Positions 11,128 through 59,756 of a stretch of 64,000 nt of DNA are shown here, one piece after another. The notes below the pieces were generated by a model that made no database searches, was not told the DNA's origin, and saw only the letters and a list, made by a program, of their open reading frames with translations. Position numbers and translations under genes: made by a program. Origin of the DNA: a phage; assembly GCA_012441205.1 (NCBI GenBank), contig GCA_012441205.1_4705.1. One strand, 5' to 3'. Within the stretch, counting starts at the first letter, position 1. Each line of letters opens with the position of its first letter.

Positions 11128-11640
11128 TTAAACTTCTTCGTTTTCTGAACCTAATGATTCAGCATCTGGATCGTCAACAGGAATGGTTGCATCAAAATAC
11201 CGTTTCGTATGCGTGGTTGTATATCCTACGCTATCTGTGATGGAAATCGTAAACGTGACTTCCCTTGCACGGATTAAGCGTAGTTTATTCATGAAGTTAC
11301 GGAACGGCATCGATCCCCGATTCAACTCCTTAATGACGTTTCCCCGAATACTGGAAATGTCTTTATTCGTTTTATCAGGGTGTCGTTTCTTCACATCACG
11401 CATATGTCGGGTAATATACGAATTGAGCTGATTTGCGCCGATCCCTCTCTCCGTATAAATCTGCAACAGGAACTCCGTAAGGAAATCCTGTCTACCCGTA
11501 GGCGTCCAGAAATTGTTACCGTGATTGTAGTTAGTCGCTCGTCCTCGATTGCTTTGAGGATTTTCATCATCGCTTTCATCACGACGCTTAAGCGGATTAA
11601 TGCGTGCGCGGAAAGAGACTTCATTATATTTATTTGTCAT
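11128..11640 (-). CDS. hypothetical protein (170 aa)
   Basis: ORF track 11128..11685; preferred start ATG 11640, which overlaps the upstream stop as ATGA. Confidence 0.6.
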   Translation of the reverse strand: MTNKYNEVSFRARINPLKRRDESDDENPQSNRGRATNYNHGNNFWTPTGRQDFLTEFLLQIYTERGIGANQLNSYITRHMRDVKKRHPDKTNKDISSIRGNVIKELNRGSMPFRNFMNKLRLIRAREVTFTISITDSVGYTTTHTKRYFDATIPVDDPDAESLGSENEEV

Positions 11641-12152
11641 AATACACCAGTGTACTGACTGAGTGCGAAGGTTAGGAGTTCGCAACAGTCTCTCGCTAGT
11701 TTCCTTGTTTTGCGTAATCCATAAGCCGCATCCAAATCGTCACGTTCCGCCAGCGCGTCTAACCACGTCGCAAGTATGCGTCCATACTCGATAACGTCAC
11801 GCATGAGAACGTCGAACCGGATAACACGACCATCGGCATCAGCAAGCCAACGATTGAACGTGATTTGTGGTGCTAGTATTGCATATGTTCTCTCCTCTAA
11901 TGCGATTATGTTTATGTTGCCTTCGTTATCGAACGCTTGATGCCAACGGCGAAGGTCAAGCATCAACGACTCAGCGTCCATATACCACAACGGTAAATAC
12001 GTTTTACGTGCAACGCGTATATCGTAGATGTTGTGAACCCAGGACGTTGTTTTGTAAAGCAACAAGAGTTCGTTTAACCGTTGCCTATCATCTTGAAACG
12101 TCTTCCTTTTATAACGTTGGAACGCACGCCTCAAGAAAAAGCGATGTAACAT
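11637..12152 (-). CDS. hypothetical protein (171 aa)
   Basis: ORF with ATG 12152 and AGGTGA upstream. Confidence 0.6.
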   Translation of the reverse strand: MLHRFFLRRAFQRYKRKTFQDDRQRLNELLLLYKTTSWVHNIYDIRVARKTYLPLWYMDAESLMLDLRRWHQAFDNEGNINIIALEERTYAILAPQITFNRWLADADGRVIRFDVLMRDVIEYGRILATWLDALAERDDLDAAYGLRKTRKLARDCCELLTFALSQYTGVL

Positions 12153-12202
12153 GGCATCACCTATGTATCATTCTTGCAGGCATCAATGAAGCCATCACAA
12201 GA

Positions 12203-12254
12203 AGGTAACGTTATACGTCGCCTTCATGACTGTCATCATGAAGGTAATATAGTC
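12203..12254 (+). promoter_or_regulatory. conserved intergenic element, copy A (candidate phage promoter or regulator site)
   Basis: AGGTAACGTTATACGTCGCCTTCATGACTGTCATCATGAAGGTAATATAGTCC; near-identical to 37921-37976; lies in a divergent intergenic region about 35 bp upstream of ATG 12286. Confidence 0.4.
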
Positions 12255-12285
12255 CTGTTATTTTTTTCAATACGGAGAATGTAAA

Positions 12286-12915
12286 ATGAGCGAATATGGT
12301 GTTGCCCCCGTAGATGATGAACCGCAAGAAGCACCTGATAAATTCGAGGTCCGTCTTGACGAAACCCGTAATATCCGCCAACGATTTATTCAACGCCTTG
12401 AAATGCTGTTAGATAGCGAATTCAAAGATTTCGAGCTTAATCCTGGCGCTGATAACAAAGCCATCGTCGACGTCGAAAACGTCGACCGAATAGGTAAGCT
12501 GTTGTTGAAATCGTTGGGCGATAACGACAAAGTCGACTTAACGTTGAAACGTATCAGTGCCGACCAGGCCATGAATGACAGCGCACTGAAAACAGCACAA
12601 GCCCTAACCGAAACCATGCTGCGCCGCTTAGGTCAGATGGATCAACATCCTCTCGCAGCAGGGGCTGTTTATGAAGGCGAAGTCGTGAAGCCAGTCACGC
12701 CTGAAGAACGTGATCGTCGACTTGGTTTTGCGTCATTGGAAGAGTTCGATAGCAAGGAGTTCTCACCAGGCGTTCTCATCCAGGGACGTGTCGAAGAAAC
12801 CAGCGATGCTTTCTATGCTAGAATGGCTCAACTGACGGCGTCGGTTCGTGAGGAGGTATCTCAGAAGATGGCTGCAGATCATCAGTCTTCGGAGGCGTCA
12901 CACGAGGAGGAATAA
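12286..12915 (+). CDS. acidic hypothetical protein (209 aa)
   Basis: ATG with GGAGA upstream; Asp/Glu-rich product. Confidence 0.6.
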   Translation: MSEYGVAPVDDEPQEAPDKFEVRLDETRNIRQRFIQRLEMLLDSEFKDFELNPGADNKAIVDVENVDRIGKLLLKSLGDNDKVDLTLKRISADQAMNDSALKTAQALTETMLRRLGQMDQHPLAAGAVYEGEVVKPVTPEERDRRLGFASLEEFDSKEFSPGVLIQGRVEETSDAFYARMAQLTASVREEVSQKMAADHQSSEASHEEE

Positions 12916-18157: not shown

Positions 18158-18165
18158 CATAATAA

Positions 18166-18201
18166 CCCACCCTACTACCCCGTTAAGGGCGGTAGGGTGG
18201 G
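18166..18201. repeat. palindromic hairpin (variant of the junction hairpin family)
   Basis: CCCACCCTAC / GTAGGGTGGG outer stem, inner CCC-gttaa-GGG apex; between convergent genes ending at 18157 and 18209. Confidence 0.5.
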
Positions 18202-22796: not shown

Positions 22797-22839
22797 CATA
22801 TTCCCTCCTCCTTCCCTGTTGGGTTGGAGGAGGGTTATG
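22797..22839. repeat. GGAGG-stem palindromic hairpin element (family copy)
   Basis: CATA-TTCCCTCCTCC-ttCCCtgttGGGtt-GGAGGAGGG-TTATG, immediately after stop 22796. Confidence 0.65.
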
Positions 22840-22848
22840 CTGTCAAGC

Positions 22849-22864
22849 AAAAAAAAAAAAAAAA
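22849..22864. repeat. A16 homopolymer tract
   Basis: 16 consecutive A, 10 nt downstream of the hairpin. Confidence 0.9.
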
Positions 22865-22909
22865 TGATAGTCACAGGCTCTCCAATGAAGGAGAGCCGTG
22901 ACCGTCAGT

Positions 22910-23611
22910 TTAAGATGCAGATAATCTCGCGTACTTCTGGCGAACATGGTTCTTACGGCGAACTTCGTCGTCCTCGTCGCGCCATTCGAGGTAAGCAACG
23001 AATCGACGTAACTGCGCCGCCGTCATCGTTGACGAGCGGTCTTCTACGTCTAGAACAACGTAACGAACATCACCAACGCCATCGCAATCAACGTAACTGA
23101 ATACCAAAAGGCCATCGCCGTACTCAACGATGGTAACTTCGAATCGTTTATCGAACAAATAAAACAGTTCCGATTCAATGATCATCGGAATGACGCATAA
23201 ATCAGCACGATTGAGGATTTCCATCATCACCCGTAACGCGCGAGGAGTATGGCGAGCGAACTGGTCGTTAAAACGTTGTTTCATCGCTTGTTCCACGCCA
23301 TCTGTTTTTGTTCCAAACCACGGACGTACTACAGATTTCGGTGGTGTAAGACGAAAGCGATATGCTTGTATAAACAACAGAATATCAGCGACGTTAGGAA
23401 ATTCTTCCTGGTCTTCGTATATCTTGCGGATAATATCCGGAATCGTAACCATCAAGTATTTCTTATCGCCTCCCACTTTCTCGAGATTAGCAATATGTCC
23501 TTCTACCACAGGCTGGTAAACGAAATTATACCAATGACGGTATCTTTCAGTACGTTGGTAGTTTGGGATAAAATTAAGAATAATACTCACTGCGCGTTTT
23601 AATGGGTTCAT
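22910..23611 (-). CDS. hypothetical protein (233 aa)
   Basis: ORF with AAGGA upstream of ATG 23611. Confidence 0.6.
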   Translation of the reverse strand: MNPLKRAVSIILNFIPNYQRTERYRHWYNFVYQPVVEGHIANLEKVGGDKKYLMVTIPDIIRKIYEDQEEFPNVADILLFIQAYRFRLTPPKSVVRPWFGTKTDGVEQAMKQRFNDQFARHTPRALRVMMEILNRADLCVIPMIIESELFYLFDKRFEVTIVEYGDGLLVFSYVDCDGVGDVRYVVLDVEDRSSTMTAAQLRRFVAYLEWRDEDDEVRRKNHVRQKYARLSAS

Positions 23612-23625
23612 CGGAAGGATCCTTC

Positions 23626-24039
23626 TTATGTTTTAATATGCACATCGTCAATCCCCTCGGTAATCCAGCCGATGGGAAGGACAATCGTTGTTATCCTGTT
23701 ATGGGTGTAGTGGTTGAGAAAATGGAAATAGTAATTTTTGTTAGACTGTTCGATCCGCAGGTCGAGATGCGCGTCTTCAGGTAACCGTAACCAAGCACCG
23801 TACAGTTCATTAAACTTACGCTGAATTTTACCGGGGTTCATTGGAACCCCACGACCACGACGATGTAGCTGACGTAATGATTCAATCAAACACTCAGAGA
23901 TACCCGTTGTCGTTCCGTTATCGCTTGTATCAATAACGATGAACTCTCGTGACCCACGACCGAGATAAAAGCCAGCGACAAAAGCTGCAGCAACAAAAAT
24001 TATCGTACCGATACCAATATACCAATAGTAAGTATCCAT
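23626..24039 (-). CDS. small membrane protein (N-terminal TM helix)
   Basis: Preferred start ATG 24039 (GAGG upstream); hydrophobic IGIGTIIFVAAAFVAGFYLG. Confidence 0.5.
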   Translation of the reverse strand: MDTYYWYIGIGTIIFVAAAFVAGFYLGRGSREFIVIDTSDNGTTTGISECLIESLRQLHRRGRGVPMNPGKIQRKFNELYGAWLRLPEDAHLDLRIEQSNKNYYFHFLNHYTHNRITTIVLPIGWITEGIDDVHIKT

Positions 24040-24050
24040 AACGACCTCAC

Positions 24051-24578
24051 TTATACCCAATAGTCGGCAAGCGGTTTTACCTTATTAATGGGCAACTGTA
24101 CTTTACCGATGTTCTCTACATCCGCATCAGCGTAGAGAACAATTTTATCACCGTCTCTTTCCCAACGAATAATGAATCGACCAGGAAGAAGATTACTCTG
24201 TTCAAGAGACGCAGTAACCTGTTGTGTTAAAACAGACAACCAAGCAGGCATCAGTGTTGCAACATCTAAGTCATTTGACCATTCAGCGCGTTGCTCCACT
24301 GGACGTAACATACGTTCGACGGTGCGTTGAACTGTTGCGGTGATATAGCCTTTATCTTCGTCACTGATTGGATCAGGACGAGACACAAAACGTTCAGCAG
24401 GCTTGTGGGTAATATATTCATGCAAATCGATGAGTGGTGTTGTCATAGTACTCGCTCCATCAGAATGTAATTGGGTAACCCGTAGGGTTGTCTGCATGCT
24501 ATTCAGCAGCGCAAAAGCGCCATAAACAACAACGATACCAAGTATAGCCAAAACAGAAATCATTAACGTGTATTGCAT
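24051..24578 (-). CDS. membrane protein (N-terminal TM helix)
   Basis: Preferred start ATG 24578 (GGGGAG upstream); hydrophobic LMISVLAILGIVVVYGAFALL. Confidence 0.5.
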   Translation of the reverse strand: MQYTLMISVLAILGIVVVYGAFALLNSMQTTLRVTQLHSDGASTMTTPLIDLHEYITHKPAERFVSRPDPISDEDKGYITATVQRTVERMLRPVEQRAEWSNDLDVATLMPAWLSVLTQQVTASLEQSNLLPGRFIIRWERDGDKIVLYADADVENIGKVQLPINKVKPLADYWV

Positions 24579-24679
24579 TGTCATCTCCCCTACATACGCA
24601 TCTTGAAGATCGGTTAAAAACAACAAAAGAAAAAACGATATAAAGCAAGGTCCTCTGATATCAGAGGACCTTGGATCAA

Positions 24680-25336
24680 TTAGCTTGCAGCTTCTTCATT
24701 TGTATCAGGTTTGCTTCCCCCTAACAAACCGTCAAACAGACCCGTATGTTTCAGGTAGAAGAGAGCGATAGCGCCCATTGCTGCTGCGCTCGTCGCCGTT
24801 AACGCAACCCCGGCACGATACTGCCATTTACGGTCAGGCTTTTGATCAAGAGCCATACGACGCATGTATTCAGCCTCTGCTTCATTCCGATGAATTTCGG
24901 ATTCAGCCAAGCGGGCTAAGGTATCGCGGTCAAGGTTATCATAACGTACGTTCATGGTGGTTTCCTCTTGTTTGGAAGTTGATTGCTTAGTGGATTCTTG
25001 GTCAACAGTCGTTTCAGATGGTTCAAACGGCTGGTTGTTCATTTTCTGATCTTTATTGGTCATGATAGACTCCTTCGATTTTTGAGACGAAATTGATTTA
25101 AACCATCGTGGATGGCGGTATTCAGTTTTACATGTGCAGTTAAGTTTCTCGTGCAGGAAAGCGTAAAAACGTTTTGCGCCTACACGTAAGGCTTTCAGCA
25201 TTACCCATCCACGAGCACTCAAACGGTGTAGCTGTTGCGGTATGTCGAGTTTCCTAGCCAAGCGAAAGTATCTTTCAATCACTTCGATAGGAAACCATTG
25301 TTGTTCCACATCGGTGAGACTGAAAGTCTTATCCAT
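24680..25336 (-). CDS. protein with C-terminal TM helix (218 aa)
   Basis: C-terminal AGVALTATSAAAMGAIALFYL. Confidence 0.5.
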   Translation of the reverse strand: MDKTFSLTDVEQQWFPIEVIERYFRLARKLDIPQQLHRLSARGWVMLKALRVGAKRFYAFLHEKLNCTCKTEYRHPRWFKSISSQKSKESIMTNKDQKMNNQPFEPSETTVDQESTKQSTSKQEETTMNVRYDNLDRDTLARLAESEIHRNEAEAEYMRRMALDQKPDRKWQYRAGVALTATSAAAMGAIALFYLKHTGLFDGLLGGSKPDTNEEAAS

Positions 25337-25365
25337 GATTGAAATCTCGCTGGCTTACTTCACTT

Positions 25366-25388
25366 AAGTAATATAGCCGTGAAAAATG
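25366..25388 (+). promoter_or_regulatory. partial copy of conserved intergenic element (copy C)
   Basis: TAAGTAATATAGCCGTGAAAAATG shares the 17-mer GTAATATAGCCGTGAAA with 37966-37982. Confidence 0.35.
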
Positions 25389-25486
25389 TTGGATTAAGTT
25401 AAATACCGCAACCGCAGCTAATTTTATAGGCTTTTAGCCTAAACCAATCATCTTCGGAATCATCATCTTTGAAACAGGAATCTATC

Positions 25487-26308
25487 ATGGAAAAAGTATT
25501 TGTTTGTAAGTTGTTTACCAACGGCAATAGCCAACCAATGTATCTGACCGATCCTGTTCTAGGTAATCGGAACAGTACCGTATTCAAAGAGGCTTTCGAA
25601 TACGCTAAAAATAAAGCCGTGAGAACACTGACGTCTGATGACTGTATCAACGGTATCACGTGGGCAGAGTTAATCGGTGATGCCGTTCGACACTTCGTTC
25701 GGGATGCGAGAAAACGGGAAATCTGTCTCACGACTATTGTTGTGCGTGAAAACGCAGAAATTTTATCAAACGTTTTGGTTGATTTTAATGACGTTTGTGT
25801 GTTTAATCCAGAGAACACGTTTGAACAATACCTTACTGCCCTGAACAACCAGCTCGGTAAAGATATTCATCCCGAATTCGCCAAGTTAACATATCAGTTA
25901 CTTTTTGACGACGTCGATCCAAATACGAAGATCGATACCAGCTTATCGCCCCTGGTAAAGAAATACGGATCGGTTCTCGCTACGGCAACACCCACCACCG
26001 ATGGTGGTTATGATATCGAATTGGATGATCCATTAAAAGAACAAGAGCCTACTGGGGTTAGGGCGGTACATCACAACCTCGTCGTTAAATCTGATGGATG
26101 CGATGAACATTACGCTATGATAAACGATGAAAACAATTACCGTTTAAGTCAAGCGATTGGTGTTCTACGCTATACCGAACCCACTGTTGTAGACGATTAT
26201 ACATCGACAACAACGCACACCACGTGTTTCATTTTCATCTATCCCAATGAAAGTGTGTACATTACCGACTGCTATGGCAATACCGTAGATAGCTTACGTC
26301 GTTATTGA
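25487..26308 (+). CDS. hypothetical protein (273 aa)
   Basis: Preferred start ATG 25487 with AGGAA upstream (track start 25469). Confidence 0.6.
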   Translation: MEKVFVCKLFTNGNSQPMYLTDPVLGNRNSTVFKEAFEYAKNKAVRTLTSDDCINGITWAELIGDAVRHFVRDARKREICLTTIVVRENAEILSNVLVDFNDVCVFNPENTFEQYLTALNNQLGKDIHPEFAKLTYQLLFDDVDPNTKIDTSLSPLVKKYGSVLATATPTTDGGYDIELDDPLKEQEPTGVRAVHHNLVVKSDGCDEHYAMINDENNYRLSQAIGVLRYTEPTVVDDYTSTTTHTTCFIFIYPNESVYITDCYGNTVDSLRRY

Positions 26309-26953: not shown

Positions 26954-26955
26954 AA

Positions 26956-26996
26956 ACCATCCTCCCAACCCGTAAGGGAAGGGAGGATGAAATATG
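26956..26996. repeat. GGAGG-stem palindromic hairpin element (family copy)
   Basis: CCATCCTCCC-aaCCCgtaaGGGaa-GGGAGGATG then AAATATG; between convergent genes. Confidence 0.6.
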
Positions 26997-34017: not shown

Positions 34018-34048
34018 ACAGAAGAAAAAAAAAAGAAATGCAATACAA

Positions 34049-34088
34049 CCTCCTTCCCTAGCCGTCAAGGCCGGGGAAGGAGGATTAT
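34049..34088. repeat. GGAGG-stem palindromic hairpin element (family copy); A10 tract just upstream at 34025-34034
   Basis: CCTCCTTCC-ctaGCCgtcaaGGCcgg-GGAAGGAGG then ATTATAG; between convergent genes. Confidence 0.55.
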
Positions 34089-34098
34089 AGTTTATTTA

Positions 34099-34488
34099 TT
34101 AACGCGTTGCATTCTGGATGATTTCTTTTCCGATCTTAACCAAAGCGGGTATCTGTACAGCGGTTGCGCCTCGATGACGAAACGCGGTCGTTAACGCGGT
34201 ATCGATACTCACCGCACGTCCGTGAAGACGATCGAAATAGACTTGAGTGATTGCGGTAGCGTAATCCTTTCGCTGTTTCTTGGTTTGGCTCAACAGCGCC
34301 GCACTATGACTAACGATGAAGTAAGCGATTAAGAAGAACGCCGCTGACCGAGAACCAGGTAGAAAACCTTGTCGCTTAGGGAGCATCTCACAATCGCGAA
34401 CACTATTATCGTTCGCCAGCTCTTCCATATCAACACAGCATAATTTTGCATAGGTGTGGAGATAGTGGGTAAAAGTTGAATTTAACAT
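34099..34488 (-). CDS. hypothetical protein (129 aa)
   Basis: ORF in a block of small minus-strand genes. Confidence 0.5.
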   Translation of the reverse strand: MLNSTFTHYLHTYAKLCCVDMEELANDNSVRDCEMLPKRQGFLPGSRSAAFFLIAYFIVSHSAALLSQTKKQRKDYATAITQVYFDRLHGRAVSIDTALTTAFRHRGATAVQIPALVKIGKEIIQNATR

Positions 34489-34593
34489 TTTCTTTCCTCG
34501 ATTGCCATGAGTTCAATGTATAGCTTAAACGTCACAGAACGACGTATAACGGTTTGTTTTAATTTCTAAGGGGTTTCCTTATCTAAGATTGAT

Positions 34594-34956
34594 TTAAAGC
34601 GTTCTGAAGAGTTCTGTAGCGTTCTCGTCACGTAGGCAGGCTTCGTTCAACAATTCAGCTAACAGCTTCGACCGAACTTCAACAAATGTCCTGAGGCGAT
34701 GCTCCCATTCTAAACGGATAGTGTACGTATTATCCAGGTTTTTGTAATCAACGACAGATGTAGAACAACGGGCCTCGCGTTTGTTCACAGCACTCCAAAC
34801 ATCACGGATAACCGTCACGCCTTTCTTGGTACACGTAAACGTTAAAATAAAGCGATTATTCGCAGCTTCTTCACGGACGCCAACAAATTCACTTCGCAAC
34901 GATGAGACTTTGATCAGTCGGTCAATAGCTAACGATAAACCGATACGTTGTTGCAT
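34594..34956 (-). CDS. hypothetical protein (120 aa)
   Basis: ORF. Confidence 0.5.
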   Translation of the reverse strand: MQQRIGLSLAIDRLIKVSSLRSEFVGVREEAANNRFILTFTCTKKGVTVIRDVWSAVNKREARCSTSVVDYKNLDNTYTIRLEWEHRLRTFVEVRSKLLAELLNEACLRDENATELFRTL

Positions 34957-34957
34957 A

Positions 34958-35383
34958 TCAAATTCCTTCTTTCAGAATCTCATTAAGACCGTCAGTAATC
35001 CAGTCGAACTTCGTCTTAATCATGGCTGGGTTCAATCCATATACTTCCCACACAAGCTGGGGTTTATGTGTTCCATCGTCCAAACAAAGCACATCGATTG
35101 AGAGTACCATACCACCCGTCAATTTCATGTTCTCGCAACTACGAAGATATGCGGATTCTAGCAATACTTTCCCTAACGCAGTGCAAGCAAATGTTAACCG
35201 GGAAGAGTACAGGTACGATGACGTTTTACAGTAGGTTGCTGATATCGGTTGAATATGTTTGCGGAGTTTGGCGTCTTCACGTAAAAGCAATAACGTGTGA
35301 TGTAACCGCGTATGCTCGGTAACCGATGAGCTATACTCACCGATACACTCTTCGGCGACTGATTTAGGCCATTTAATTTTCAT
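34958..35383 (-). CDS. hypothetical protein (141 aa)
   Basis: ORF, adjacent to the upstream gene with a 1-nt gap. Confidence 0.5.
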   Translation of the reverse strand: MKIKWPKSVAEECIGEYSSSVTEHTRLHHTLLLLREDAKLRKHIQPISATYCKTSSYLYSSRLTFACTALGKVLLESAYLRSCENMKLTGGMVLSIDVLCLDDGTHKPQLVWEVYGLNPAMIKTKFDWITDGLNEILKEGI

Positions 35384-35398
35384 GTTCGATTCCTCGTA

Positions 35399-35842
35399 TT
35401 AACACTGTGTTCCATTCGATAAGCGGGTGGTATCAAAACGATCCAGTTGGTGTACAATGCTATCAGCAACACGATGCAAATAGTGTATTTTGTCCATTCG
35501 TGAAATCGCAGAAATCGTCCAGCAAGCCTCTGACGTCCAATAGGTGCCGTCTTCACTAAGGCTAACGTTATAAACTAACTTCGTCATCACATTTCTCGCC
35601 TTATGCTCAGCAGACCAGAATATGTTTTCTAACACATCCTTCCCCGTTTGTGAAAACACGAACCCAAGCTTCACGTCGAAGTCGGATGCTTCAAGATTAA
35701 CGCAGTGAAGATGATTCTCTAACGGCGCAAAAGAGGCTAAACGTTCCAGCGCATGTTGCAGTGTGGGATGATCGAGCTTTTCGAGATCATCCGCAGGTTG
35801 TTCAGGTACAATCGCGATCGATTTACAGAATTTAATTTCCAT
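35399..35842 (-). CDS. hypothetical protein (147 aa)
   Basis: ORF. Confidence 0.5.
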   Translation of the reverse strand: MEIKFCKSIAIVPEQPADDLEKLDHPTLQHALERLASFAPLENHLHCVNLEASDFDVKLGFVFSQTGKDVLENIFWSAEHKARNVMTKLVYNVSLSEDGTYWTSEACWTISAISRMDKIHYLHRVADSIVHQLDRFDTTRLSNGTQC

Positions 35843-35877
35843 GGTAGGTTCCTCTTGATAGTGGTTGATGATAGTAA

Positions 35878-35940
35878 CGGGGACGGCGATGTCCCCTTGG
35901 TTTCTTATTGCCCCGCCTGTACCCGATGGGGTACAGGCGG
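35878..35940 (-). other. two tandem stem-loops between co-directional genes
   Basis: GGGGAC-ggcgat-GTCCCC and CCCGCCTGTACCC-gatg-GGGTACAGGCGGG. Confidence 0.4.
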
Positions 35941-35954
35941 GTGATGTTGATGCG

Positions 35955-36362
35955 TTATAGCGGCATCAGACGTTCTTTAAGTTGGGTTAACTTATTTGCA
36001 ACGATGTTCTCAACGTCGATCATCTTGTTCATGTTGTCGAGGGTATCCTGCCAGATGAAAATATCCACGGAACCGGTTCCGACTAACGCGTTCTCAGGAC
36101 GATGGTCACGGGTCACGTAGCGTGGTCTCTGCGGGCAGGTTTGTAACTCGATCCAAAGCGCATCTAACGGACCACGGTCCGTGACACCTAAGGCGAAGAA
36201 TTCACCTCGTACGACCAGAACATCATCAGCCGTCCTGACACGGGTTGATCCTTCGTACACCAATTCCATCTTTGCTCGACAGGCTGGGTTCTCGTTCCAC
36301 GCCTGGACGGCATCGGCAAGGGCTATTGACGTTGCGGTGGTGTTCGTTTGATCATGTTGCAT
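35955..36362 (-). CDS. hypothetical protein (135 aa)
   Basis: ORF. Confidence 0.5.
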   Translation of the reverse strand: MQHDQTNTTATSIALADAVQAWNENPACRAKMELVYEGSTRVRTADDVLVVRGEFFALGVTDRGPLDALWIELQTCPQRPRYVTRDHRPENALVGTGSVDIFIWQDTLDNMNKMIDVENIVANKLTQLKERLMPL

Positions 36363-36439
36363 TCTAAGCTCCTGTAACGCTCTCTAAGCGTCGTTTTAAG
36401 TTAAGGTATAGTTTCCCTTCTTTGGATTCGTTTATTGCG

Positions 36440-36715
36440 TTATACGGCTTTTCTGTGCGCGTAGAACGCCTTCGTTCCGTTGTTGATTGCTTCAACCACA
36501 TCCCGGGTTAACACAACGGCGTTATCGCTTCGAGACGACGGTGCGTAATACCCTTCACCGTTCTCGGTAATCAGGCGATAACGGACTAAGCCTATGCTCG
36601 GTTCAACACGTAGCACCTTCTCAAGTTTGTATTTGATGATCTTCGTCAGGCTAACCGTGTCTGACGCGTAGATCGCTTTATAAACTTTGTTCTTTGCTGT
36701 GGGTTTCATCAACAT
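36440..36715 (-). CDS. hypothetical protein (91 aa)
   Basis: ORF. Confidence 0.45.
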   Translation of the reverse strand: MLMKPTAKNKVYKAIYASDTVSLTKIIKYKLEKVLRVEPSIGLVRYRLITENGEGYYAPSSRSDNAVVLTRDVVEAINNGTKAFYAHRKAV

Positions 36716-36755
36716 GATTTCTGTTGTATTTTCCTTTTCGCTTGTTGGTGTTGGA

Positions 36756-37055
36756 TTAATGTTTAGGTTCCGTTTTGTGTTGTGCGAGTAATGTGTTGAT
36801 CTGCTCCCGTTGTTCTTTTAAGCATGCAGGAAGCTGGTCTTCCCGTACCGTTCCGATTTCCAACGTGATGTACCAACGTTGTTCGGAAGCCTGCCATTGA
36901 AAACTGCTCTGTAACCTCAGGATGCTAGGATCACGTACCTTGCTTGCACTGTAACGGTTGAACCAATCCAGGTATGCTGCTTTCCCTTCCTCGTCAGCGA
37001 TGTAACGCTGCACGCTGTTCTTCCCTTTGTTCTCGTATCCCGTTGCACGTATCAT
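36756..37055 (-). CDS. hypothetical protein (99 aa)
   Basis: Preferred start ATG 37055 overlaps upstream stop as ATGA; ORF track extends to 37109. Confidence 0.45.
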   Translation of the reverse strand: MIRATGYENKGKNSVQRYIADEEGKAAYLDWFNRYSASKVRDPSILRLQSSFQWQASEQRWYITLEIGTVREDQLPACLKEQREQINTLLAQHKTEPKH

Positions 37056-37834
37056 GCGAACGTTTCTCCTGTAATGTGTTGCGGATGGCGTAGCATGGTA
37101 GCATCCCATTGTACGATCTGGCTTCGGCTTACCCGCATCATGATGGATTCGTCATCAAGCCCCTGTTGCGCAACCGGCAACCAACGTTCCCCAAGCACCT
37201 TCGCTTCAACACGTTTCTTGCGTGGGTTGTAACGCACCTCGCTAACCCAAGCGAATCCAAGCGGATGGACTACCCGTGGATAAAACATGCGAAGCAATTG
37301 ATGCATCCGATCCGTTGCCTCCAATTTGCCATCCACCATGTAAGGTTTCACCATGGTAAGCTTTTTGGTGTAATACGTTCCAACGGTATGGTTACGCCAA
37401 CTTGGCAAGGCATGATCCCCTTCTCTCAGTTTGCTATCCGAGTTCATTGACCAGACCTGCTGTTTACCGGCCAGCATCGCGTACTGCCGATCAACGCAAC
37501 GAACCCGATCGGCGAACAATGGATCCAGGACATCATCCACCGCGCCCTTATTGCGATAACCGTGATGTACCACCAACCTGCTTGCGCTCATCGATGCGGG
37601 ATGCTGGCTCTTATGCGCATACAGCCCTCCGTCACCGCGAGCGTCGTAAAGATAACCGCATGCGCCACGCCATATCACCTTGCCTACGGTTCTCTCGTCT
37701 TCAAGCAGCATCGTCGGCCCATCAAGCAAATTGGTGAACCACTGCACCTTCACGCATTCCGCTTGGACATGCTCAGGTAATGCCTGATACTCTTTTTGGG
37801 TGTATAAGGTATCAAAAATGATTTCTTCGTTCAT
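37052..37834 (-). CDS. hypothetical protein (260 aa)
   Basis: ORF; first gene downstream of the long non-coding region on the minus strand. Confidence 0.6.
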   Translation of the reverse strand: MNEEIIFDTLYTQKEYQALPEHVQAECVKVQWFTNLLDGPTMLLEDERTVGKVIWRGACGYLYDARGDGGLYAHKSQHPASMSASRLVVHHGYRNKGAVDDVLDPLFADRVRCVDRQYAMLAGKQQVWSMNSDSKLREGDHALPSWRNHTVGTYYTKKLTMVKPYMVDGKLEATDRMHQLLRMFYPRVVHPLGFAWVSEVRYNPRKKRVEAKVLGERWLPVAQQGLDDESIMMRVSRSQIVQWDATMLRHPQHITGETFA

Positions 37835-37920
37835 TTAAAAAGTTCCTCTGTTTCACGTTAATTAAACAACGTATTGATTTCTATTTGACAGAATACGAAC
37901 ATCGTACGTATCTATCACTT

Positions 37921-37976
37921 AGGTAACGCTTACGCGTCGCGTTCATGATACCATGCATCATGAAGGTAATATAGCC
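37921..37976 (+). promoter_or_regulatory. conserved intergenic element, copy B
   Basis: AGGTAACGCTTACGCGTCGCGTTCATGATACCATGCATCATGAAGGTAATATAGCC; near-identical to 12203-12254. Confidence 0.4.
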
Positions 37977-38085
37977 GTGAAAGGATTTGTGTTAACGCAA
38001 GGGTTTTGTTTGTTTTTTAAGAAGGGATGGATTTAGAAGAGGTGTTTCAAGGAAGGTAAACGAGAATAGGTATTTTGATTTAAGT

Positions 38086-38210
38086 AAGATGTTATCTGTA
38101 TCCGTTAGAAGTGTATTGTCTAAGTTATCTTGTTTATCTTAGGTTTAATCGTTTTTATCTTGGTATGTTTAAGTTGTTTTTATTTAACTGTTAAAATGCT
38201 TATCTTCAAA
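38086..38210. repeat. AT-rich tract with reiterated TTATCT/TTATC motifs (iteron-like)
   Basis: gTTATCTgta, gTTATCTtg, tTTATCTtag, tTTATCTtgg, cTTATCTtc within about 120 bp. Confidence 0.5.
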
Positions 38211-38220
38211 ACAATGGATA

Positions 38221-38269
38221 ACATGTGTTTACTACGCTCGTTGAGTTATAACTCAACGGTAACACATGT
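38221..38269. repeat. nested palindrome (cruciform-capable)
   Basis: Outer arms ACATGTGTT / AACACATGT enclosing inner arms CGTTGAGTT / AACTCAACG. Confidence 0.6.
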
Positions 38270-38428
38270 CATCTGTGCATTACACTACGTTACATGCTAG
38301 TTAAATCGGATAACTCAAAAAAACATTTGTGATACTCTTCTTCACGTTGTTCATCAGAGTATCTCGTCTATACTCATTGCATTCGTATACGACATAACCG
38401 TTACACGCTAACGCTACGCTTATAGCTT

Positions 38429-38495
38429 GATAACTCTAAGGATAAAAACATAAACTCGCTTCGCTCGTTTAGTTTTTCTTTTTCTTAGAGTTATC
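38429..38495. repeat. 12-bp perfect inverted repeat GATAACTCTAAG / CTTAGAGTTATC separated by 43 bp
   Basis: Read directly at 38429-38440 and 38484-38495; GATAACTC also recurs at 38308. Confidence 0.6.
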
Positions 38496-38661
38496 CTGTT
38501 GCTCGTCTCTAAAGGACTTCGCTCCTCCCCCGTCCCCCGAAGGGGCCGAGGTCGTGGAAATTTTACTTTCCAAATACATTTACAACATCTGTAAACTTTT
38601 ACTCCAGGTACTTAATCTTATCATTAGAAATTATAAAAGAGAAAATAAACACAAACATAAA

Positions 38662-38698
38662 CCTTCCCCCGACCCGTAAGGGAAGGAGGAAGGGAGAG
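38662..38698. repeat. hairpin related to the junction family (conserved apex CCCGTAAGGGAA)
   Basis: CCTTCC-cccgaCCCgtaag-GGAAGG then GAGGAAGGGAGAG; directly 3' of minus gene stop 38705. Confidence 0.45.
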
Positions 38699-38704
38699 AT
38701 TAAA

Positions 38705-41338: not shown

Positions 41339-41800
41339 TTAAATACCCTTGGTTCCCTTCACGTGATGTGCAATTTCTTCAACCATTGCACGCAGAGCAC
41401 GAAGTTGTTGGTCATGTTCGTACCAACCACCCAACAGAACCCCGCTATACACCATGGTGTCAAGACTTAACAGCCCTTTATCTGATACGTTGATCATTTC
41501 CGGGAACTGTTCTTGAACACGCTGTGCGATAACACCGATCTTCTCGACATCAGGATCGTAGTTGTGACGGAAACGGGCAAGTCCGGTATACGCCATTTCA
41601 CGTAAACGATCACTGAAAGATTCCGGATGATCTTTCAGATAACGAATGTCATGTTTACTACGTTCATCCGAGCGAATGTAAGCGTTAGGAACATCGATAT
41701 TGCTGTTGAAGTACAGCGCACTACCACCGCCTGCAGAGTTCCCCCAATAGAAGCGTGTGATCTCACCGCCACCATTCTCCGTGATGATGACATGTTTACC
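41339..41800 (-). other. S74-like intramolecular chaperone (auto-cleaving) domain region of tail fibre
   Basis: SDERSKHDI Ser-Lys dyad motif near the protein C-terminus. Confidence 0.55.
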
Positions 41801-43387
41801 TAAACGCGTACCGCCACTACCATCAACGAAGACCAGTTTGTTTCCGCTGTAAGAACCCCAGAACAAACGTGTATCGATGATGTGCGTTGCAGCGAGGCGG
41901 GCGTTACGTGGCGTAGAATACACGGTGTTAACATCTTGCTGCGCTTGCGCATCGGAAGCGATACCATAGTTCTGTACGTTACCTAACCCAACCTGCGCTT
42001 TCGTAACCGCGTGTGGGTTATCACGACGGTTAGCGTGAGCGTTAACCAGATCACCCGCTAATTTCTGAATTGCCCAGTTGGTAGACTGTGGTGTCATGTA
42101 ACGGTTAGTTGCAGAACCACCTTGCGCTTCAGCTTGGTTAGCGGTTGGATAGTTCTCAACGCTTCCCAAACCGACCTGCGCTTTGGTTACTCTGTGTGGG
42201 TTGTTCTTGTCAGCGATGTGCGCATTAAGCGGAACTAACGCAAAGGTCTCAATGGACGCTTTGGTTGTGTTCGGTGCCATTAATCGGTTAGCTGCAACAC
42301 CGGCACGCGCTTCTTCTTCAGAAGCCATCGGATAGTCTTGCACATTCCCTAACCCAACCTGCGCTTTGGTTACTCTGTGTGGGTTGTTGTAATCGGCTTT
42401 ATGTGCATTAAGTGGAATCAATGCGAACTGTTCAATCGCTGCAACAGTGCGTAGCGGCGTCATGAAACGGTTGTTCGCTGTTCCGGCTTTCGCCTCATCA
42501 TCCGAAGCGGTCGGGAAGTTATCAACGTTCCCAAGGTTAACCTGTGCTTTGGTGACGCTATGCGGGTTGTCTCGACGGTTAGCGTGAGCGTCGACTAGAT
42601 CGCCCGCCAGTTTAGCAATCGCCCATCCAACCGTTTGTGCTGTCATGTAACGGTCTGGTGCGGTACCGGCTTCTGCCTCCGCCTTGTTGGCAGTAGGATA
42701 GTTCTGTACATTACCTAGTCCGACTTGGGCTTTTGTGGTTTCGTGCGGGTTATCGGTACGGTTAGCATGTGCGTAATGCAGATCGGTCAGATCTTTATCC
42801 GCTGCTTGCATGTCTTTGCGTAACTGATCGATTGCCGCCCAGAGACGGTTATCGGATGCAGCATCACCGATAAGTATTGCGGCTTTCAGTGAATAGATCG
42901 CTAAGCAAAGATGTTCGGTACCGTAGATAGCACTAACGTGGTGGATGTGTGGTTCAGGCGGATAAAGTTCCGGTTTGTTCTTGATGTCGTCCCAGTTGAT
43001 CGGACGATCGTCAAGTTTGAGTTCTTCGATAGCCTGATACAACGCGTCAATAAGACTTACGTAAACACCACCGATGATACGATAGTCGTTAACTAACGTC
43101 CCCTCGATATCATCGTTGATGATGGCGATGGCTGCACAGATTTCTTTACCAGCGTAAAGCGTAGCGTCCTGATACAAGAAGATGGGTTTGTAATCCACGC
43201 CGCGTACCAGTGTCTTACCGGTAAGCTTTTCAGTGATGACCAGACTTTCGGTGAAGAACGGTCCGCCATCAAGAGCGTAACATTTGTTCTCGGTTCGTGG
43301 AACGGTATGCTCTTCACCAACGATGTGGTTGCTATCGAGCGTGCCGGTCCAGTCCTCGGGGTACTTCAGGGTAATTGGTGTTGACAT
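41339..43387 (-). CDS. tail fibre protein with tandem repeats and C-terminal S74-type intramolecular chaperone domain
   Basis: Five repeats of about 50 aa of type NPH.VTKAQVGLGNV.NY.....EA..G...NR.MTP; C-terminal YIRSDERSKHDIRYLK...GLLSLDTMVYSGVLLGGW typical of the autoproteolytic chaperone of fibres and tailspikes. Confidence 0.75.
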   Translation of the reverse strand: MSTPITLKYPEDWTGTLDSNHIVGEEHTVPRTENKCYALDGGPFFTESLVITEKLTGKTLVRGVDYKPIFLYQDATLYAGKEICAAIAIINDDIEGTLVNDYRIIGGVYVSLIDALYQAIEELKLDDRPINWDDIKNKPELYPPEPHIHHVSAIYGTEHLCLAIYSLKAAILIGDAASDNRLWAAIDQLRKDMQAADKDLTDLHYAHANRTDNPHETTKAQVGLGNVQNYPTANKAEAEAGTAPDRYMTAQTVGWAIAKLAGDLVDAHANRRDNPHSVTKAQVNLGNVDNFPTASDDEAKAGTANNRFMTPLRTVAAIEQFALIPLNAHKADYNNPHRVTKAQVGLGNVQDYPMASEEEARAGVAANRLMAPNTTKASIETFALVPLNAHIADKNNPHRVTKAQVGLGSVENYPTANQAEAQGGSATNRYMTPQSTNWAIQKLAGDLVNAHANRRDNPHAVTKAQVGLGNVQNYGIASDAQAQQDVNTVYSTPRNARLAATHIIDTRLFWGSYSGNKLVFVDGSGGTRLGKHVIITENGGGEITRFYWGNSAGGGSALYFNSNIDVPNAYIRSDERSKHDIRYLKDHPESFSDRLREMAYTGLARFRHNYDPDVEKIGVIAQRVQEQFPEMINVSDKGLLSLDTMVYSGVLLGGWYEHDQQLRALRAMVEEIAHHVKGTKGI
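41990..42820 (-). repeat. coding tandem repeat array (tail-fibre shaft repeats)
   Basis: Repeated DNA blocks; segment TTCTCAACGCTTCCCAAACCGACCTG at 42156-42181 recurs at 47836-47861 in the second fibre gene. Confidence 0.6.
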
Positions 43388-47067: not shown

Positions 47068-49221
47068 TTATAACGTTTCGAAGTCGGTTGCTTTGATAAC
47101 CGCGTTGAAGTTGGCAAGGAATTCCTTAAGCAGTGCTTGGAAGACATCACGAAACGCTGTGTTCGTCTGCAAGCTGGTTAAATAATCGTTCTTAAGGTAA
47201 TCGCTCAGCTTACCGATCTTCTGCATCTTCTCGCCGTCTTGGTTCTCTCCAGGTTCTTGGCTGTTGATGTTAACCCATTTGATCCCTTCGAGATCACCAT
47301 CGGCAAGGAAGTTGGCGGGTGTCTCATCGTCGTTCAGGATTTTAATCGTATCACTGGATTCAATGCCACCGTAAGCTTCCAGAAGCTGGTTGACTGTTAG
47401 CTTATTGGTGTTGATTGAACCATTGACACCATCGATACCGATGCCTGCACCTGTGATGGATGTCGCCGAAAGATCGATCGGTCCGGTTAACTTACCACCG
47501 TTGATCGGTAACGCACCAACTTGCTCAGCGGTGTGTGTATGGTCAGCTAACGCCGCAAACGCCACGATAGACTTATATGTCGAATACGGCGTCATATACG
47601 CTGATTGGTTGGTGTTGTCAGCCGCTTCAGTATCGGTAGCGACATTAAAGTTCTGCACGTTGCTGAGACCGACCTGCACCTTCGTTACTTCATGCGGGTT
47701 GTTCTTATTGACAACGTGTGCTGCAAAACCATCACCAGCTAAAGCAGTGATTGCCGCTTTTGTCGCAGCCGGTGTCATATAGCGGTTGGTTGCTTCACCC
47801 GTTTGCGCCTCTTCGTCGGAAGCAACAGGATAGTTCTCAACGCTTCCCAAACCGACCTGAGATTTTGTTACTTGGTGTGGGTTTTCGGTATTCGCAATAT
47901 GACTACTGAACCCTTGACCCGCCAGTTGCTCGATTGCGTAACGAACAAGTATTGGTGTCATGTACTTGTTGTTAACTTGACCATCGATAGCTTCTTGGGT
48001 GGTGGCAACCCCGAAGTTTTGCACGCTCCCCAACCCAACTTGAGATTTTGTTACCCCATGGGGGTTATTGGTGTTACCGATGTGTTCGGTTACAGTTGGG
48101 GTGATTAATGCTGCGATAGCGGCTGCTGTGGTCGCAGGTGTCATGTATTTATCGTTAGCAACACCCGCAGCAGCTTCTACGTTAGATGCTAAACCGTAGT
48201 TCAATACACTACCCAACCCAACCTGAGCCTTGGTTACCCCATGGGGGTTGTTCTTGTCTCCGGTATGGGTTGTCAACGAAGCATTAACGTTATCGATACG
48301 TGTACTTAAGCCATCGGTGATTGCTTTGATTGCGGCTCGTACACCCGCTGGAGTCGTGTACAGATTTGTGGCCGTACCGGTAATAGTTGTATTACTATCG
48401 GCTACACCGTAGTTCTCAACGTTTCCGAGTCCGATCTGTGCCTTGGTCACCTTGTGTGGGTTGTTGTAGTTGCTGATGTGCGCAGCGGCACTATCACCAC
48501 TCAGGTTAGCGATCATCTTACGTGTCATCGCCAACGTCATGTACAGATTTTCACCGATGGTTTCCAGATCGCTCTCGGTCGCCGTTGTGAAGTTCTGCAC
48601 ATTCCCTAACCCAACCTGAGCCTTGGTTACCCCGTGGGGGTTATCGCGACGATTCTCGTGCTGCAACAATGCGGTCATTGCTTTATTGAACCCTTCTTCA
48701 AGCGGTTCTTTCAATGATTCGATTGCAGCTACCACATCGTCCCACGTCATTGTGTCGGTTTCGACATTATGCTGGTGGTTAATTGGCGGGAATACGGAAG
48801 GAACGTCGGCAACCTTTTCCCAGAATGTAACGCGAGGGTCGTAAAGGTTGTTGGCTAAAACGTTAAGAATTTGCTGCTGATCGAGTGTAAACTCACCCCC
48901 CAGTGAATAGTAGTTCAGTTGCAACTGTCCACTGAATGCGGTGTCCAACAGCATGATGGAACCGTATAATTCCAGGCCGGTCAGCGCAGCCATGGCACGG
49001 AAGGGGTGAGTGCATAAAAAGTCAACGCCTTCTTCCAGATACGCGTTTGTTTCAGGGTTATAGATCTTTAACCCATTACGAAAATATGGCGCGTATTTAG
49101 GAACGAGAAAGTTAAATCCGGTCCCCGTGGAAGGACGGACAGTGACGAGTTCTTCTGGAACCCATGCGCCATCCAAATTCCCCTGCGGGTTATACGGAAG
49201 GCGTTTAATTTCATCTGTCAT
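47068..49221 (-). CDS. tail fibre protein with six tandem repeats (717 aa); no S74 domain
   Basis: Repeats NPHGVTKAQVGLGNVQNF..., NNPHKVTKAQIGLGNVENY..., NNPHGVTKSQVGLGSVQNF... and others; distinct C-terminal domain. Confidence 0.75.
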   Translation of the reverse strand: MTDEIKRLPYNPQGNLDGAWVPEELVTVRPSTGTGFNFLVPKYAPYFRNGLKIYNPETNAYLEEGVDFLCTHPFRAMAALTGLELYGSIMLLDTAFSGQLQLNYYSLGGEFTLDQQQILNVLANNLYDPRVTFWEKVADVPSVFPPINHQHNVETDTMTWDDVVAAIESLKEPLEEGFNKAMTALLQHENRRDNPHGVTKAQVGLGNVQNFTTATESDLETIGENLYMTLAMTRKMIANLSGDSAAAHISNYNNPHKVTKAQIGLGNVENYGVADSNTTITGTATNLYTTPAGVRAAIKAITDGLSTRIDNVNASLTTHTGDKNNPHGVTKAQVGLGSVLNYGLASNVEAAAGVANDKYMTPATTAAAIAALITPTVTEHIGNTNNPHGVTKSQVGLGSVQNFGVATTQEAIDGQVNNKYMTPILVRYAIEQLAGQGFSSHIANTENPHQVTKSQVGLGSVENYPVASDEEAQTGEATNRYMTPAATKAAITALAGDGFAAHVVNKNNPHEVTKVQVGLSNVQNFNVATDTEAADNTNQSAYMTPYSTYKSIVAFAALADHTHTAEQVGALPINGGKLTGPIDLSATSITGAGIGIDGVNGSINTNKLTVNQLLEAYGGIESSDTIKILNDDETPANFLADGDLEGIKWVNINSQEPGENQDGEKMQKIGKLSDYLKNDYLTSLQTNTAFRDVFQALLKEFLANFNAVIKATDFETL
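47640..48660 (-). repeat. coding tandem repeat array (tail-fibre shaft repeats), second fibre
   Basis: Six approximately 120-150-bp repeat units; shares near-identical stretches with 41990-42820. Confidence 0.6.
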
Positions 49222-49325: not shown

Positions 49326-50606
49326 ATGTATACATTGGTAAAAACTTACGGATTACCCGTAGGTTCTGGCACGGCCTGGACAGCACTTGAGGCGGGTGAA
49401 AGTGTCCTGAGTACGTTGTTCTCAACGTATCAAAAACTCAAGATCCAGGTTCATGAAAGCTATGCTGACCAGCAACAAGTTATTGATCTGTACGCATTTC
49501 AATCCGAGCTTCAAAATAGTAGCGATACGCTTAATGCGTGGTTGAAAGCGAAATCGGATGCGCATACCAACCTTCGCGGACAGCCCGGCGAGCTGTCGAT
49601 TAAAACCCACAAGCTCTATTGCCATGACGCTATTACAGTAGGCTTTCTTCCCAAAGTCGGTAATAGCGGCTATCATCCGAGCAACGCGATCCCTGAGTCG
49701 GAACGCACTGATATCCTGTTGACGAAAGCAAATACGAATTACGAAAATATCGGCAAACATTGTCTATTCACCGTAGGCGGTTATGTTCACCCTCATGTCT
49801 ACGGTAAAGATGTTGGCGTCTATATCCAGGGTGGGTTCAAAACAGCACAGCGCAGCCAAGAAAACGATATCGGCATGATTGATTTTAGCCGTATCGGGAG
49901 TTTGGAAATTCATGCTATCACAGAAGAGATGATTGCTGATTCCACGAAGCTCTTGCCGTATAAGGACGAGATGTACTTACGGCTACCGCGCAAGGTCGCC
50001 GAAGATGAAACCGTTGCGCTGGTGTTCGGGGGATATTTACATCTTCTTGACGATTGTTACACGATCGTTAGTGACACGACAGCGAAAATAAACTGCATTA
50101 ATATGTTTCTGTATGAAAGATACTTCCGCTCCCGCAAATACCTTGATTTAACATCCCTTGGTATTCTGCTGAACGAAGAAGACCCGCAGTCCGACATTGT
50201 TGCCAATCGTTTACTGTCCGATAAAGCATTAAAAGCTTGGGTGACGCACCCCTGCAGTTTCTGGGTGTATATCAAAGCAACATCGATTCAGGTTACGCAA
50301 GAACCTTTACCACGAAGTGGCGTACCAGGACAATATTTCTTAGGTAAGAAACCGGAAGGACTGATTCGAGCCGATCTCGGCGAGTTACCGGCTTACGTGC
50401 AGACCTATGAAAAACCGTTATGGGTACTTCACTCGCGTTGGGGACTTCGTAAGAACATGTTGTTTGAAAATACATTGTACAAACATACCCGCGTTAAGAG
50501 ACTTAACGATACGCCTTATCTTCACCAGGTTTGGTTGGAAACGCATGCGACGTTACAGACAGTACACAAGCTCGAATTGATCGATTCCAGTCAGAAAAAC
50601 AAATAA
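49326..50606 (+). CDS. hypothetical protein (426 aa), plus-strand gene inside the tail module
   Basis: ATG with AAGGGGG upstream. Confidence 0.6.
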   Translation: MYTLVKTYGLPVGSGTAWTALEAGESVLSTLFSTYQKLKIQVHESYADQQQVIDLYAFQSELQNSSDTLNAWLKAKSDAHTNLRGQPGELSIKTHKLYCHDAITVGFLPKVGNSGYHPSNAIPESERTDILLTKANTNYENIGKHCLFTVGGYVHPHVYGKDVGVYIQGGFKTAQRSQENDIGMIDFSRIGSLEIHAITEEMIADSTKLLPYKDEMYLRLPRKVAEDETVALVFGGYLHLLDDCYTIVSDTTAKINCINMFLYERYFRSRKYLDLTSLGILLNEEDPQSDIVANRLLSDKALKAWVTHPCSFWVYIKATSIQVTQEPLPRSGVPGQYFLGKKPEGLIRADLGELPAYVQTYEKPLWVLHSRWGLRKNMLFENTLYKHTRVKRLNDTPYLHQVWLETHATLQTVHKLELIDSSQKNK

Positions 50607-50609
50607 CCA

Positions 50610-50652
50610 AACATAACCCTCCTCCAACCCGTAAGGGAAGGAGGAGGGAATA
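50610..50652. repeat. GGAGG-stem palindromic hairpin element (canonical family copy)
   Basis: CATAA-CCCTCCTCC-aaCCCgtaaGGGaa-GGAGGAGGG-AATATG; between convergent genes ending at 50606 and 50658. Confidence 0.65.
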
Positions 50653-59706: not shown

Positions 59707-59756
59707 CATAGTTAACCTTCTCCCCAACCCGATGAGGGAAGGGGAGAAGGGCTATG
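59707..59756. repeat. GGAGG-stem palindromic hairpin element (family copy)
   Basis: CATAG-ttaa-CCTTCTCCCC-aaCCCgatgaGGGaa-GGGGAGAAGG-GCTATG; between convergent genes. Confidence 0.6.

Follow-up and report, generated by a model that had tools for sequence, protein, structure and literature searches.

The intergenic sequences that recur at three places in the window (the whole 64,000-nucleotide stretch of phage DNA analysed here) are, we conclude with high confidence, minus-strand early promoters of a Goslar-like chimallivirus, most likely read by the injected virion RNA polymerase (vRNAP), and two of them, A and B, additionally carry an inserted cassette. One 32-nt motif, TTTCAcGnc-TAyATTAC-N5-T-G(+1)-A, fits all three on the minus strand. 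Transcription most likely starts, by analogy with known early promoters, at the G at 12237, 25361 and 37959 (Goslar coordinates 226681 for A, 2553 for C and 15053 for B). The sites and the genes that they would serve are as follows.

12234–12265, minus strand: predicted early promoter A, AAAAATAACAGGAC-TATATTAC-CTTCAT-G-ATG, weight-matrix score 35.1 bits; -10-like element 12244–12251, predicted start G 12237; orthologous to Goslar site 226709, upstream of early genes 00236 and 00235.
11637–12152 (minus) and 12286–12915 (plus): divergent neighbours of copy A.
11128–12152, minus strand: predicted operon of promoter A, ORFs 11637–12152 and 11128–11640, corresponding to Goslar_00236 and 00235.
25358–25389, minus strand: predicted early promoter C, ACATTTTTCACGGC-TATATTAC-TTAAGT-G-AAG, 40.6 bits; -10-like element 25368–25375, predicted start 25361, without a cassette; orthologous to Goslar site 2581, upstream of early block 00004–00001.
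24680–25336 (minus) and 25469–26308 (plus): divergent neighbours of copy C.
22910–25336, minus strand: predicted operon of promoter C, corresponding to Goslar_00004 to 00001.
37956–37987, minus strand: predicted early promoter B, AATCCTTTCACGGC-TATATTAC-CTTCAT-G-ATG, 39.8 bits; -10-like element 37966–37973, predicted start 37959; orthologous to Goslar site 15081, upstream of early block 00021–00014.
37052–37834 (minus): gene downstream of copy B, which on its other side borders an ORF-free gap.
34099–37834, minus strand: predicted operon of promoter B, eight small genes corresponding to Goslar_00021 to 00014.

Over 3 kb around copy A, the window shares 98.7% identity with Escherichia phage vB_EcoM_Goslar. 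This E. coli phage, a nucleus-forming member of the Chimalliviridae and a jumbo phage, has a genome of 237 kb in which split homologues of RNA polymerase beta/beta' are annotated (00078, 00165, 00171, 00188 and 00231). Site A falls in Goslar between Goslar_00236 (minus) and 00237 (plus), site C between 00004 (minus) and 00005 (plus), and site B between 00021 and 00022 (both minus). Window position 12001 corresponds to Goslar 226445 and 25301 to Goslar 2493, and at about 22800–22900 the window passes without a break over the point where the linear Goslar GenBank record begins and ends. The termini of that record are thus arbitrary, as would be expected if the genome is circularly permuted or terminally redundant.

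An earlier note on this DNA had described a single conserved element of about 50 bp in two near-identical copies and a partial third, all in divergent or upstream intergenic regions, and much of that description holds. The 19-mer CATCATGAAGGTAATATAG is present exactly at 12234–12252 (copy A) and 37956–37974 (copy B), with a chance expectation of about 0.015 for exact 19-mer repeats in 64 kb, and TCATGAAGGTAATATAG, allowing up to 3 mismatches, matches only at A and B, two matches being reached in 0 of 100 shuffles. An alignment of A (12199–12254) with B (37917–37976) gives 48 identities in 61 columns, its indels including a 3-nt loop difference that accounts for the insertion reported between the two full copies. 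Copy C does share sequence with B (GTAATATAGCCGTGAAA is common to both, and 33 of 44 positions agree over a wider stretch), and all three copies are indeed intergenic. The sequence GGTAATATAG, with up to 1 mismatch, has 9 matches where 2.4 are expected, a count found in none of 100 shuffles, and the exact GTAATATA occurs at six sites in the window, all six on the plus strand. A search of the whole window against Rfam returned no family.

What the comparison does not support is the unity of the element, because the cassette has no counterpart at the orthologous B promoter of Goslar. There are two parts, a promoter motif at A, B and C and a cassette at A and B only, and the resemblance of A and B extends over about 55 nt because both carry the cassette besides the promoter. 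Nor is there support for the two AGGTAA half-sites that had been noted, the second being part of a degenerate promoter-like end of the cassette (GTTAC).

The genome-wide motif search that the note had proposed was run on the whole Goslar genome, assembled from five record segments, and yielded 14 minus-strand sites. A weight matrix (PWM) finds exactly three strong sites in the window, all on the minus strand at 35–41 bits (the next best match scores 10.7 bits and the best of 50 shuffles 20.9 bits), and in Goslar it finds 12 strong sites, again all on the minus strand, before a large gap in score. The core expression TA[TC]AT[TA]AC-N5-[TG]G has 14 minus-strand matches in Goslar and one plus-strand match, the latter within the DNA polymerase gene; all 14 lie 25–205 nt upstream of a minus-strand start codon, and two of them are weak (14–17 bits). 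The 32-nt consensus, aaannTTTCAcGncTAtATTACcTangTGAtn, holds about 42 bits of information. Within it, TAyATTAC does not vary among the 12 strong sites of Goslar and the 3 of the window, nor does the T-G at positions 6–7 after the core, which is equally constant in 7 phiKZ sites. The TAC variant (TACATTAC) is found at 5 of the 14 Goslar sites, and a sixth has TACATAAC.

Strand, which the earlier note had left ambiguous, is settled by the same genome. All 10 Goslar occurrences of GTAATATA are on the plus strand, 8 of them intergenic and with a much longer consensus in common, and four of these eight exact-core sites are flanked by minus-strand genes on both sides, so that a minus-strand reading is the only consistent one. 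The functional reading is thus the reverse complement of the sequence first noted.

Indirect information on early transcription comes from Goslar infections in which chimallin synthesis was blocked (Armbruster et al., bioRxiv 10.1101/2023.09.20.558163). The block arrests the phage in an injection vesicle that contains the vRNAP, presumably the sole polymerase active at this stage, and the knockdown transcriptome matches the wild-type transcriptome at 5–20 min (Armbruster et al., 10.1101/2023.09.20.558163). We used their Supplementary Table 2, all genes taken in genome order, with the 30-min ChmA knockdown/control ratio as the measure; the strandedness of the library is unconfirmed. In these data 146 genes are non-depleted and form nine contiguous blocks, and the others fall by 3–8 log2 units. 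A motif site lies directly upstream of the first-transcribed gene in all nine blocks (genes 4, 21, 40, 47, 75, 159, 210, 221 and 236), and the chance that nine block boundaries would all fall among 14 of 249 genes is small (hypergeometric P = 2.3e-13). The other five sites, including the one upstream of chimallin, lie within early blocks, and all 14 motif-adjacent genes belong to the non-depleted class. A few plus-strand genes embedded in early blocks also appear non-depleted.

The three sites of the window follow this pattern. Genes 00236 and 00235, downstream of A, have log2 fold changes of about +0.5 and the next gene, 00234, about -3.5. Values for 00004–00001, downstream of C, are +0.2 to +1.3, and those for the divergent 00005 are -5 to -7.5 (three replicates). 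All eight genes of the B operon stand at about +0.8 to +1.4, with flanking 00013 and 00022 at -4 to -6.6, and the operon ends at a terminator-like hairpin at 34047–34074. The predicted 5' UTR is 85 nt for the A operon and 25 nt for C, to the ATG at 25336. The neighbours on the plus side, 00237, 00005 and 00022, are nucleus-dependent late genes and strongly depleted, which rules out early promoter activity in the plus orientation. As for the gene products, the A-operon ORFs have no Pfam match and only function-unknown PHROG matches, and Pfam and PHROGs searches of the genes flanking A, B and C gave nothing informative and no candidate regulator.

On sequence grounds, the identical core in phiKZ and Goslar makes the Goslar element a member of the known phiKZ-like class of early promoters, with an upstream half of its own. 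Ceyssens et al. are said to have described early (virion RNA polymerase) promoters of phiKZ in 2014. In the first 50 kb of phiKZ, TATATTAC occurs seven times, always intergenic, on the sense strand and followed by N5-TG. The two phages therefore share an identical 8-nt core, an invariant T-G 6–7 nt downstream, a T/A-rich upstream part and a position on the sense strand ahead of early operons, with a copy before chimallin in each: gaaaaaaatttgagattTATATTACtaaattGaat upstream of PHIKZ054 (chimallin) and gaaaaaaatttcagggtTATATTACctaggtGaat in Goslar, the predicted chimallin leader being 66 nt in both. The early motif of phiKZ has been described as an extended -10 box with a T-rich element upstream of -19, and a primary start with this motif was mapped at PHIKZ054 (Wicke et al. 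2020, PMC8244752). In a figure on the Goslar chmA start site the sequence shown starts, according to the legend, 91 nt ahead of the start codon; we set this remark aside as evidence for a start, since the next gene is also given 91 nt, which there begins right after the chmA stop codon and spans roughly the whole intergenic region. The two phages differ in the upstream half, which in the Goslar type is TTTCACGGC preceded by AATCCAA or an A-run and in phiKZ ATTTAAACAG or similar, and in number, with 28–32 sites in phiKZ and about 14 in Goslar; moreover, the Goslar-type starts given here are predictions from sequence.

The resemblance extends to other phages that inject a polymerase. According to a review, all jumbo phages that encode RNAPs of their own have at their early operons a conserved AT-rich motif, some 10 nt long and close to -10, that the virion polymerase reads, and the start in phiKZ and phiR1-37 is reported 6 nt downstream of the AT-rich element. 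Early promoters of AR9, AAATATATATTAT-(6N)-G+1 (Lavysh et al. 2017, PMC5312081), resemble the Goslar type in TATATTA(T/C) and a six-nucleotide spacer, in a G start, which for Goslar is predicted, and most likely in being read by an injected multisubunit RNA polymerase. AR9 differs in being a uracil-DNA Bacillus phage outside the Chimalliviridae, and its AT-rich element is longer and ends in T rather than C.

In our view, an injected multisubunit vRNAP most likely recognises TAyATTAC, centred on -10, together with TTTCAcGnc upstream and, further up, AATCCAA or an A-run, and most likely initiates at the invariant G seven nucleotides downstream of TAyATTAC. Each promoter would then drive a leftward operon of small early genes. 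The earlier suggestion of a phage-specific promoter was right. The data establish the motif with its strand and positions, its exact match to the gene blocks still transcribed without a phage nucleus, and a core identical to the sequence ahead of phiKZ early genes.

Other accounts of the three copies fare much worse. If they were host sigma-70 promoters, with TATATT as the -10 element, E. coli RNA polymerase would read them right after injection; TATATT matches TATAAT at 5 of 6 positions, and the minus strand of copy B has TTAACA-16-TATATT, with 10 of 12 matches. However, the misfit to sigma-70 that had been noted is borne out, as B alone has, on the minus strand, the pair of -35 and -10 hexamers 16–18 nt apart, which neither A nor C shows, and the conserved TTAC, N5, TG and CAcG are not sigma-70 determinants. 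The identical core stands ahead of early genes in phiKZ, a phage reported to transcribe its genes without the host polymerase, and the DNA from which the A, B and C operons are expressed is enclosed with vRNAP in an injection vesicle; we regard host promoters as very unlikely. The plus orientation, in which GGTAATATAG would drive the rightward genes 12286–12915 and 25469–26308 and GTAATATAG would serve as the element upstream of plus-strand starts, is suggested by the plus-strand gene that follows both A and C in their divergent regions. Yet four of the eight exact-core Goslar sites would face only the 3' end of a minus-strand gene, about 720 bp after B are gene-free, and under the nucleus block the plus-side neighbours are depleted by -4 to -7 whereas the minus-strand neighbours are not, making this orientation extremely improbable. 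Just as implausible is the view that the copies are chance similarities or functionless leftovers of duplicated gene ends. The cassette does resemble a decayed tandem duplication of the promoter, as GTTAC followed by CTTCATGAT recurs 43 nt downstream, but the shuffle and repeat statistics rule out chance, and the sites are intergenic, on one strand and coincident with every early-block boundary, with a core conserved as far as phiKZ. For the promoter core a functionless reading is already refuted, and an origin of the copies as remnants of a duplicated gene end, which the earlier note had kept in view, is excluded.

The second part of the repeat, the cassette, is found within the window at the following places.

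12205–12243, minus strand: cassette at promoter A, 39 nt, CTTCAT-G-ATGACAGTCATGAAGG-CGACGTATAACGTTAC; palindrome arms 12221–12229 and 12236–12244, spanning -7 to +17.
37923–37965, minus strand: cassette at promoter B, 43 nt, CTTCAT-G-ATGCATGGTATCATGAA-CGCGACGCGTAAGCGTTAC; palindrome arms 37942–37949 and 37957–37964, followed by the resident CTAAGT-G-ATAGATACG.

The orthologous B promoter of Goslar reads TACATTAC-CTTCAT-G-ATAGATACG, without the cassette, and relative to it the window has 43 extra nt, inserted precisely where the -10 element meets the resident spacer and start. All copies are built alike: a spacer and start G of its own, a short loop, an inverted copy of spacer and start, a conserved CGACG-yrTAA box and a promoter-like end, GTTAC, after which the resident spacer and start follow. 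At A, a small second hairpin (ACGT-ATA-ACGT) comes after the palindrome, and the pseudo -10 GTTAC at the end is followed by the resident CTTCTT-G at 12198–12204. Folded as single-stranded DNA, the A element reaches -10.8 kcal/mol (z = -4.5) and the B element -9.6 kcal/mol (z = -2.1).

We compared six genomes, namely the window, Goslar, UViG_3300011560 and UViG_3300045988_173921 (both from IMG/VR), and OGZS01000006 and ERZ1643250 NODE-25 (both from metagenomes and covered in pieces). At site A the cassette is present in all six. At B it is absent from Goslar and UViG_3300045988_173921, single in the window and UViG_3300011560, and doubled in OGZS01000006, and at the gene-75 promoter it is present in OGZS01000006 and absent from Goslar. 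Six near-identical genomes thus carry 0–2 copies per promoter at three different promoters. Searches with cassette patterns gave matches only in Goslar-like genomes, where a stricter pattern misses known copies; an IMG/VR match to the palindrome pattern (L086) was an unrelated chance match. With at most 4 copies per genome, all at the same position inside an early promoter, we rejected a MITE- or REP-like element, for which numerous scattered copies at varied sites, with terminal inverted repeats and target-site duplications, would be expected.

The A and B cassettes of four genomes were aligned. Palindrome arms measure 8–12 bp in all copies but one, with 3 to 7 nt between them, and they vary between copies yet stay complementary (CCTTCATGA/TCATGAAGG, CGTTCATGATGC/GCATCATGAACG, CCTGTTTGAC/GTCAAACAGG); the 3-nt loop reads CAT or ATG, its two orientations, depending on the genome. 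Most of the 5' arm precedes the predicted start, so that only the DNA contains the whole palindrome, and we discarded an RNA hairpin formed from it, although the RNA retains a 3–5-bp stem at its 5' end. Judged by eye, the variant cassette of OGZS01000006 does not retain an alternative RNA pairing in which the 3' arm would bind the resident start region. Three points argue against strong selection for the palindrome: an uncompensated arm mutation at A in one genome, a G.T mismatch in the B arm of the window, and the dispensability of the cassette at B.

In our reading, the cassette originated by tandem duplication of promoter and leader. In UViG_3300011560 the 13-nt ATCATGAAGGTAA is repeated exactly 43 nt apart. 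A cassette that supplies its own spacer and start G would preserve promoter function and would be tolerated because it brings a working start site, and because both of its ends resemble the promoter we infer that it spreads, or is lost, through recombination between early promoters. Its effect is most likely a longer, more structured 5' leader, and it may modulate initiation.

Whether the cassette does more than this can be argued in two ways. It could be a functional mobile promoter-proximal module that tunes when or how strongly particular early operons are expressed by the injected polymerase within the injection vesicle, through a start-site hairpin or cruciform or through leader structure, an idea that we hold only tentatively and think rather unlikely, as the cassette variation and the arm defects fit neutrality as well as function. 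Were it true, moving the cassette from one early promoter to another would let phages vary the dosage of early genes. A second idea, less probable again, is that the A/B palindrome is an operator through which a dimeric DNA-binding protein of phage or host switches two early operons. An inverted repeat of 9–12 bp over -7 to +17 occupies a classic repressor position, and the palindrome is present at only a subset of early promoters, as an operator might be. However, cassette arms differ (TTCATGA versus CTGTTTGA) yet remain complementary, which points to a structure or a copying mechanism rather than to the site of one protein; the variable arm spacing of 3 to 7 nt, the lack of obvious consequence for the Goslar B promoter without a cassette, and the absence of a recognisable DNA-binding domain (Pfam, PHROGs) from the proteins downstream of A, B and C also count against it.

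Hairpins at early promoters have a precedent. In phage N4 the polymerase has a single subunit, and all early promoters need a hairpin, which is located upstream of the start. In both cases a short DNA hairpin accompanies promoters that serve an injected phage polymerase (PMC4496689), but the palindrome here spans the start, is found at only 1–3 of about 14 promoters and can be dispensed with at the same promoter, as sister phages show, and the polymerase is multisubunit. Since the palindrome extends from -7 to +17, is confined to some promoters and is absent at B in two sister genomes, we rejected an N4-type hairpin promoter.

Goslar serves as an E. coli model for nucleus-forming phages, and a structure paper on it from 2026 lists early gene transcription among the open questions. 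The promoter class is already known; for the Goslar-type member we found no earlier description in the literature searched, where a text search for TATATTAC returned unrelated papers only. A defined consensus with predicted starts and 14 located sites accounts for every early gene block, and shows an early promoter core conserved between the phiKZ and Goslar genera. We envision that these 14 sites could supply templates for vRNAP biochemistry, early operon boundaries and engineering parts. The variable cassette, in turn, offers a small natural experiment, with sister phages that differ only in the cassette at the same promoter.

Several further features of these genomes deserve mention. An inverted repeat whose first base lies at -2 to +1 opens about half of the 14 predicted Goslar early transcripts, with examples such as GATAAGA-N8-TCTTATC and GATAACAG-N6-CTGTTATC; loci with such leader repeats have predicted starts at 86691, 49718, 166055, 113783 and 15053. 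In 6 of 14 transcripts a stem from +1 is 5 bp or longer, versus a background of 14.6% (P about 0.01), and the B leader of OGZS01000006 has a hairpin GATAACA...TGTTATC where Goslar has GATAGA...TCTGTC. Judged by their sequences, these repeats may form 5'-terminal stem-loops on early mRNAs. Stem-loops at the 5' terminus can stabilise E. coli mRNAs, as in the ompA leader. The likeness lies in the stem from +1 or +2 in about half of the predicted early transcripts and in cassette RNAs that also begin with a stem (GAUGC-CAU-GCAUC), but the enrichment is modest (P about 0.01) and the 5' arm of the cassette lies mostly upstream of the start. In Goslar_00047 (49584–49772, outside the window), the annotated start codon is upstream of the predicted early start at 49718; its true beginning is likelier an ATG that lies about 57 nt downstream of 49718 and has a GAGGA ribosome-binding site.

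Upstream of promoter B, the gap of about 720 bp at 37988–38704 contains no ORF above 56 aa and no Rfam match, and it holds the densest GATAAC/GTTATC cluster of the window (6 in about 400 bp versus 0.66 expected per 500 bp); the gap could have a role in regulation or replication. A G+C-rich hairpin of consensus about AACCnTCCTCCCAACCCGTAAGGGAAGG recurs in six copies (18165–18192, 26955–26982, 34047–34074, 38659–38686, 50614–50641 and 59714–59741), most of them between convergent genes. These copies look like shared transcription terminators, probably bidirectional, and putative terminators are annotated in the Goslar record at several matching positions. Finally, diverged tandem repeats with a 183-nt period (61 codons) occupy 41950–42808 and 47631–48664, within two large minus-strand ORFs at 41339–43387 and 47068–49221. 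These correspond to Goslar_00025 and 00029, both annotated as YomR-like and the former with a Peptidase_S74 domain, and the repeats are probably repeated domains of tail-fibre-like proteins.
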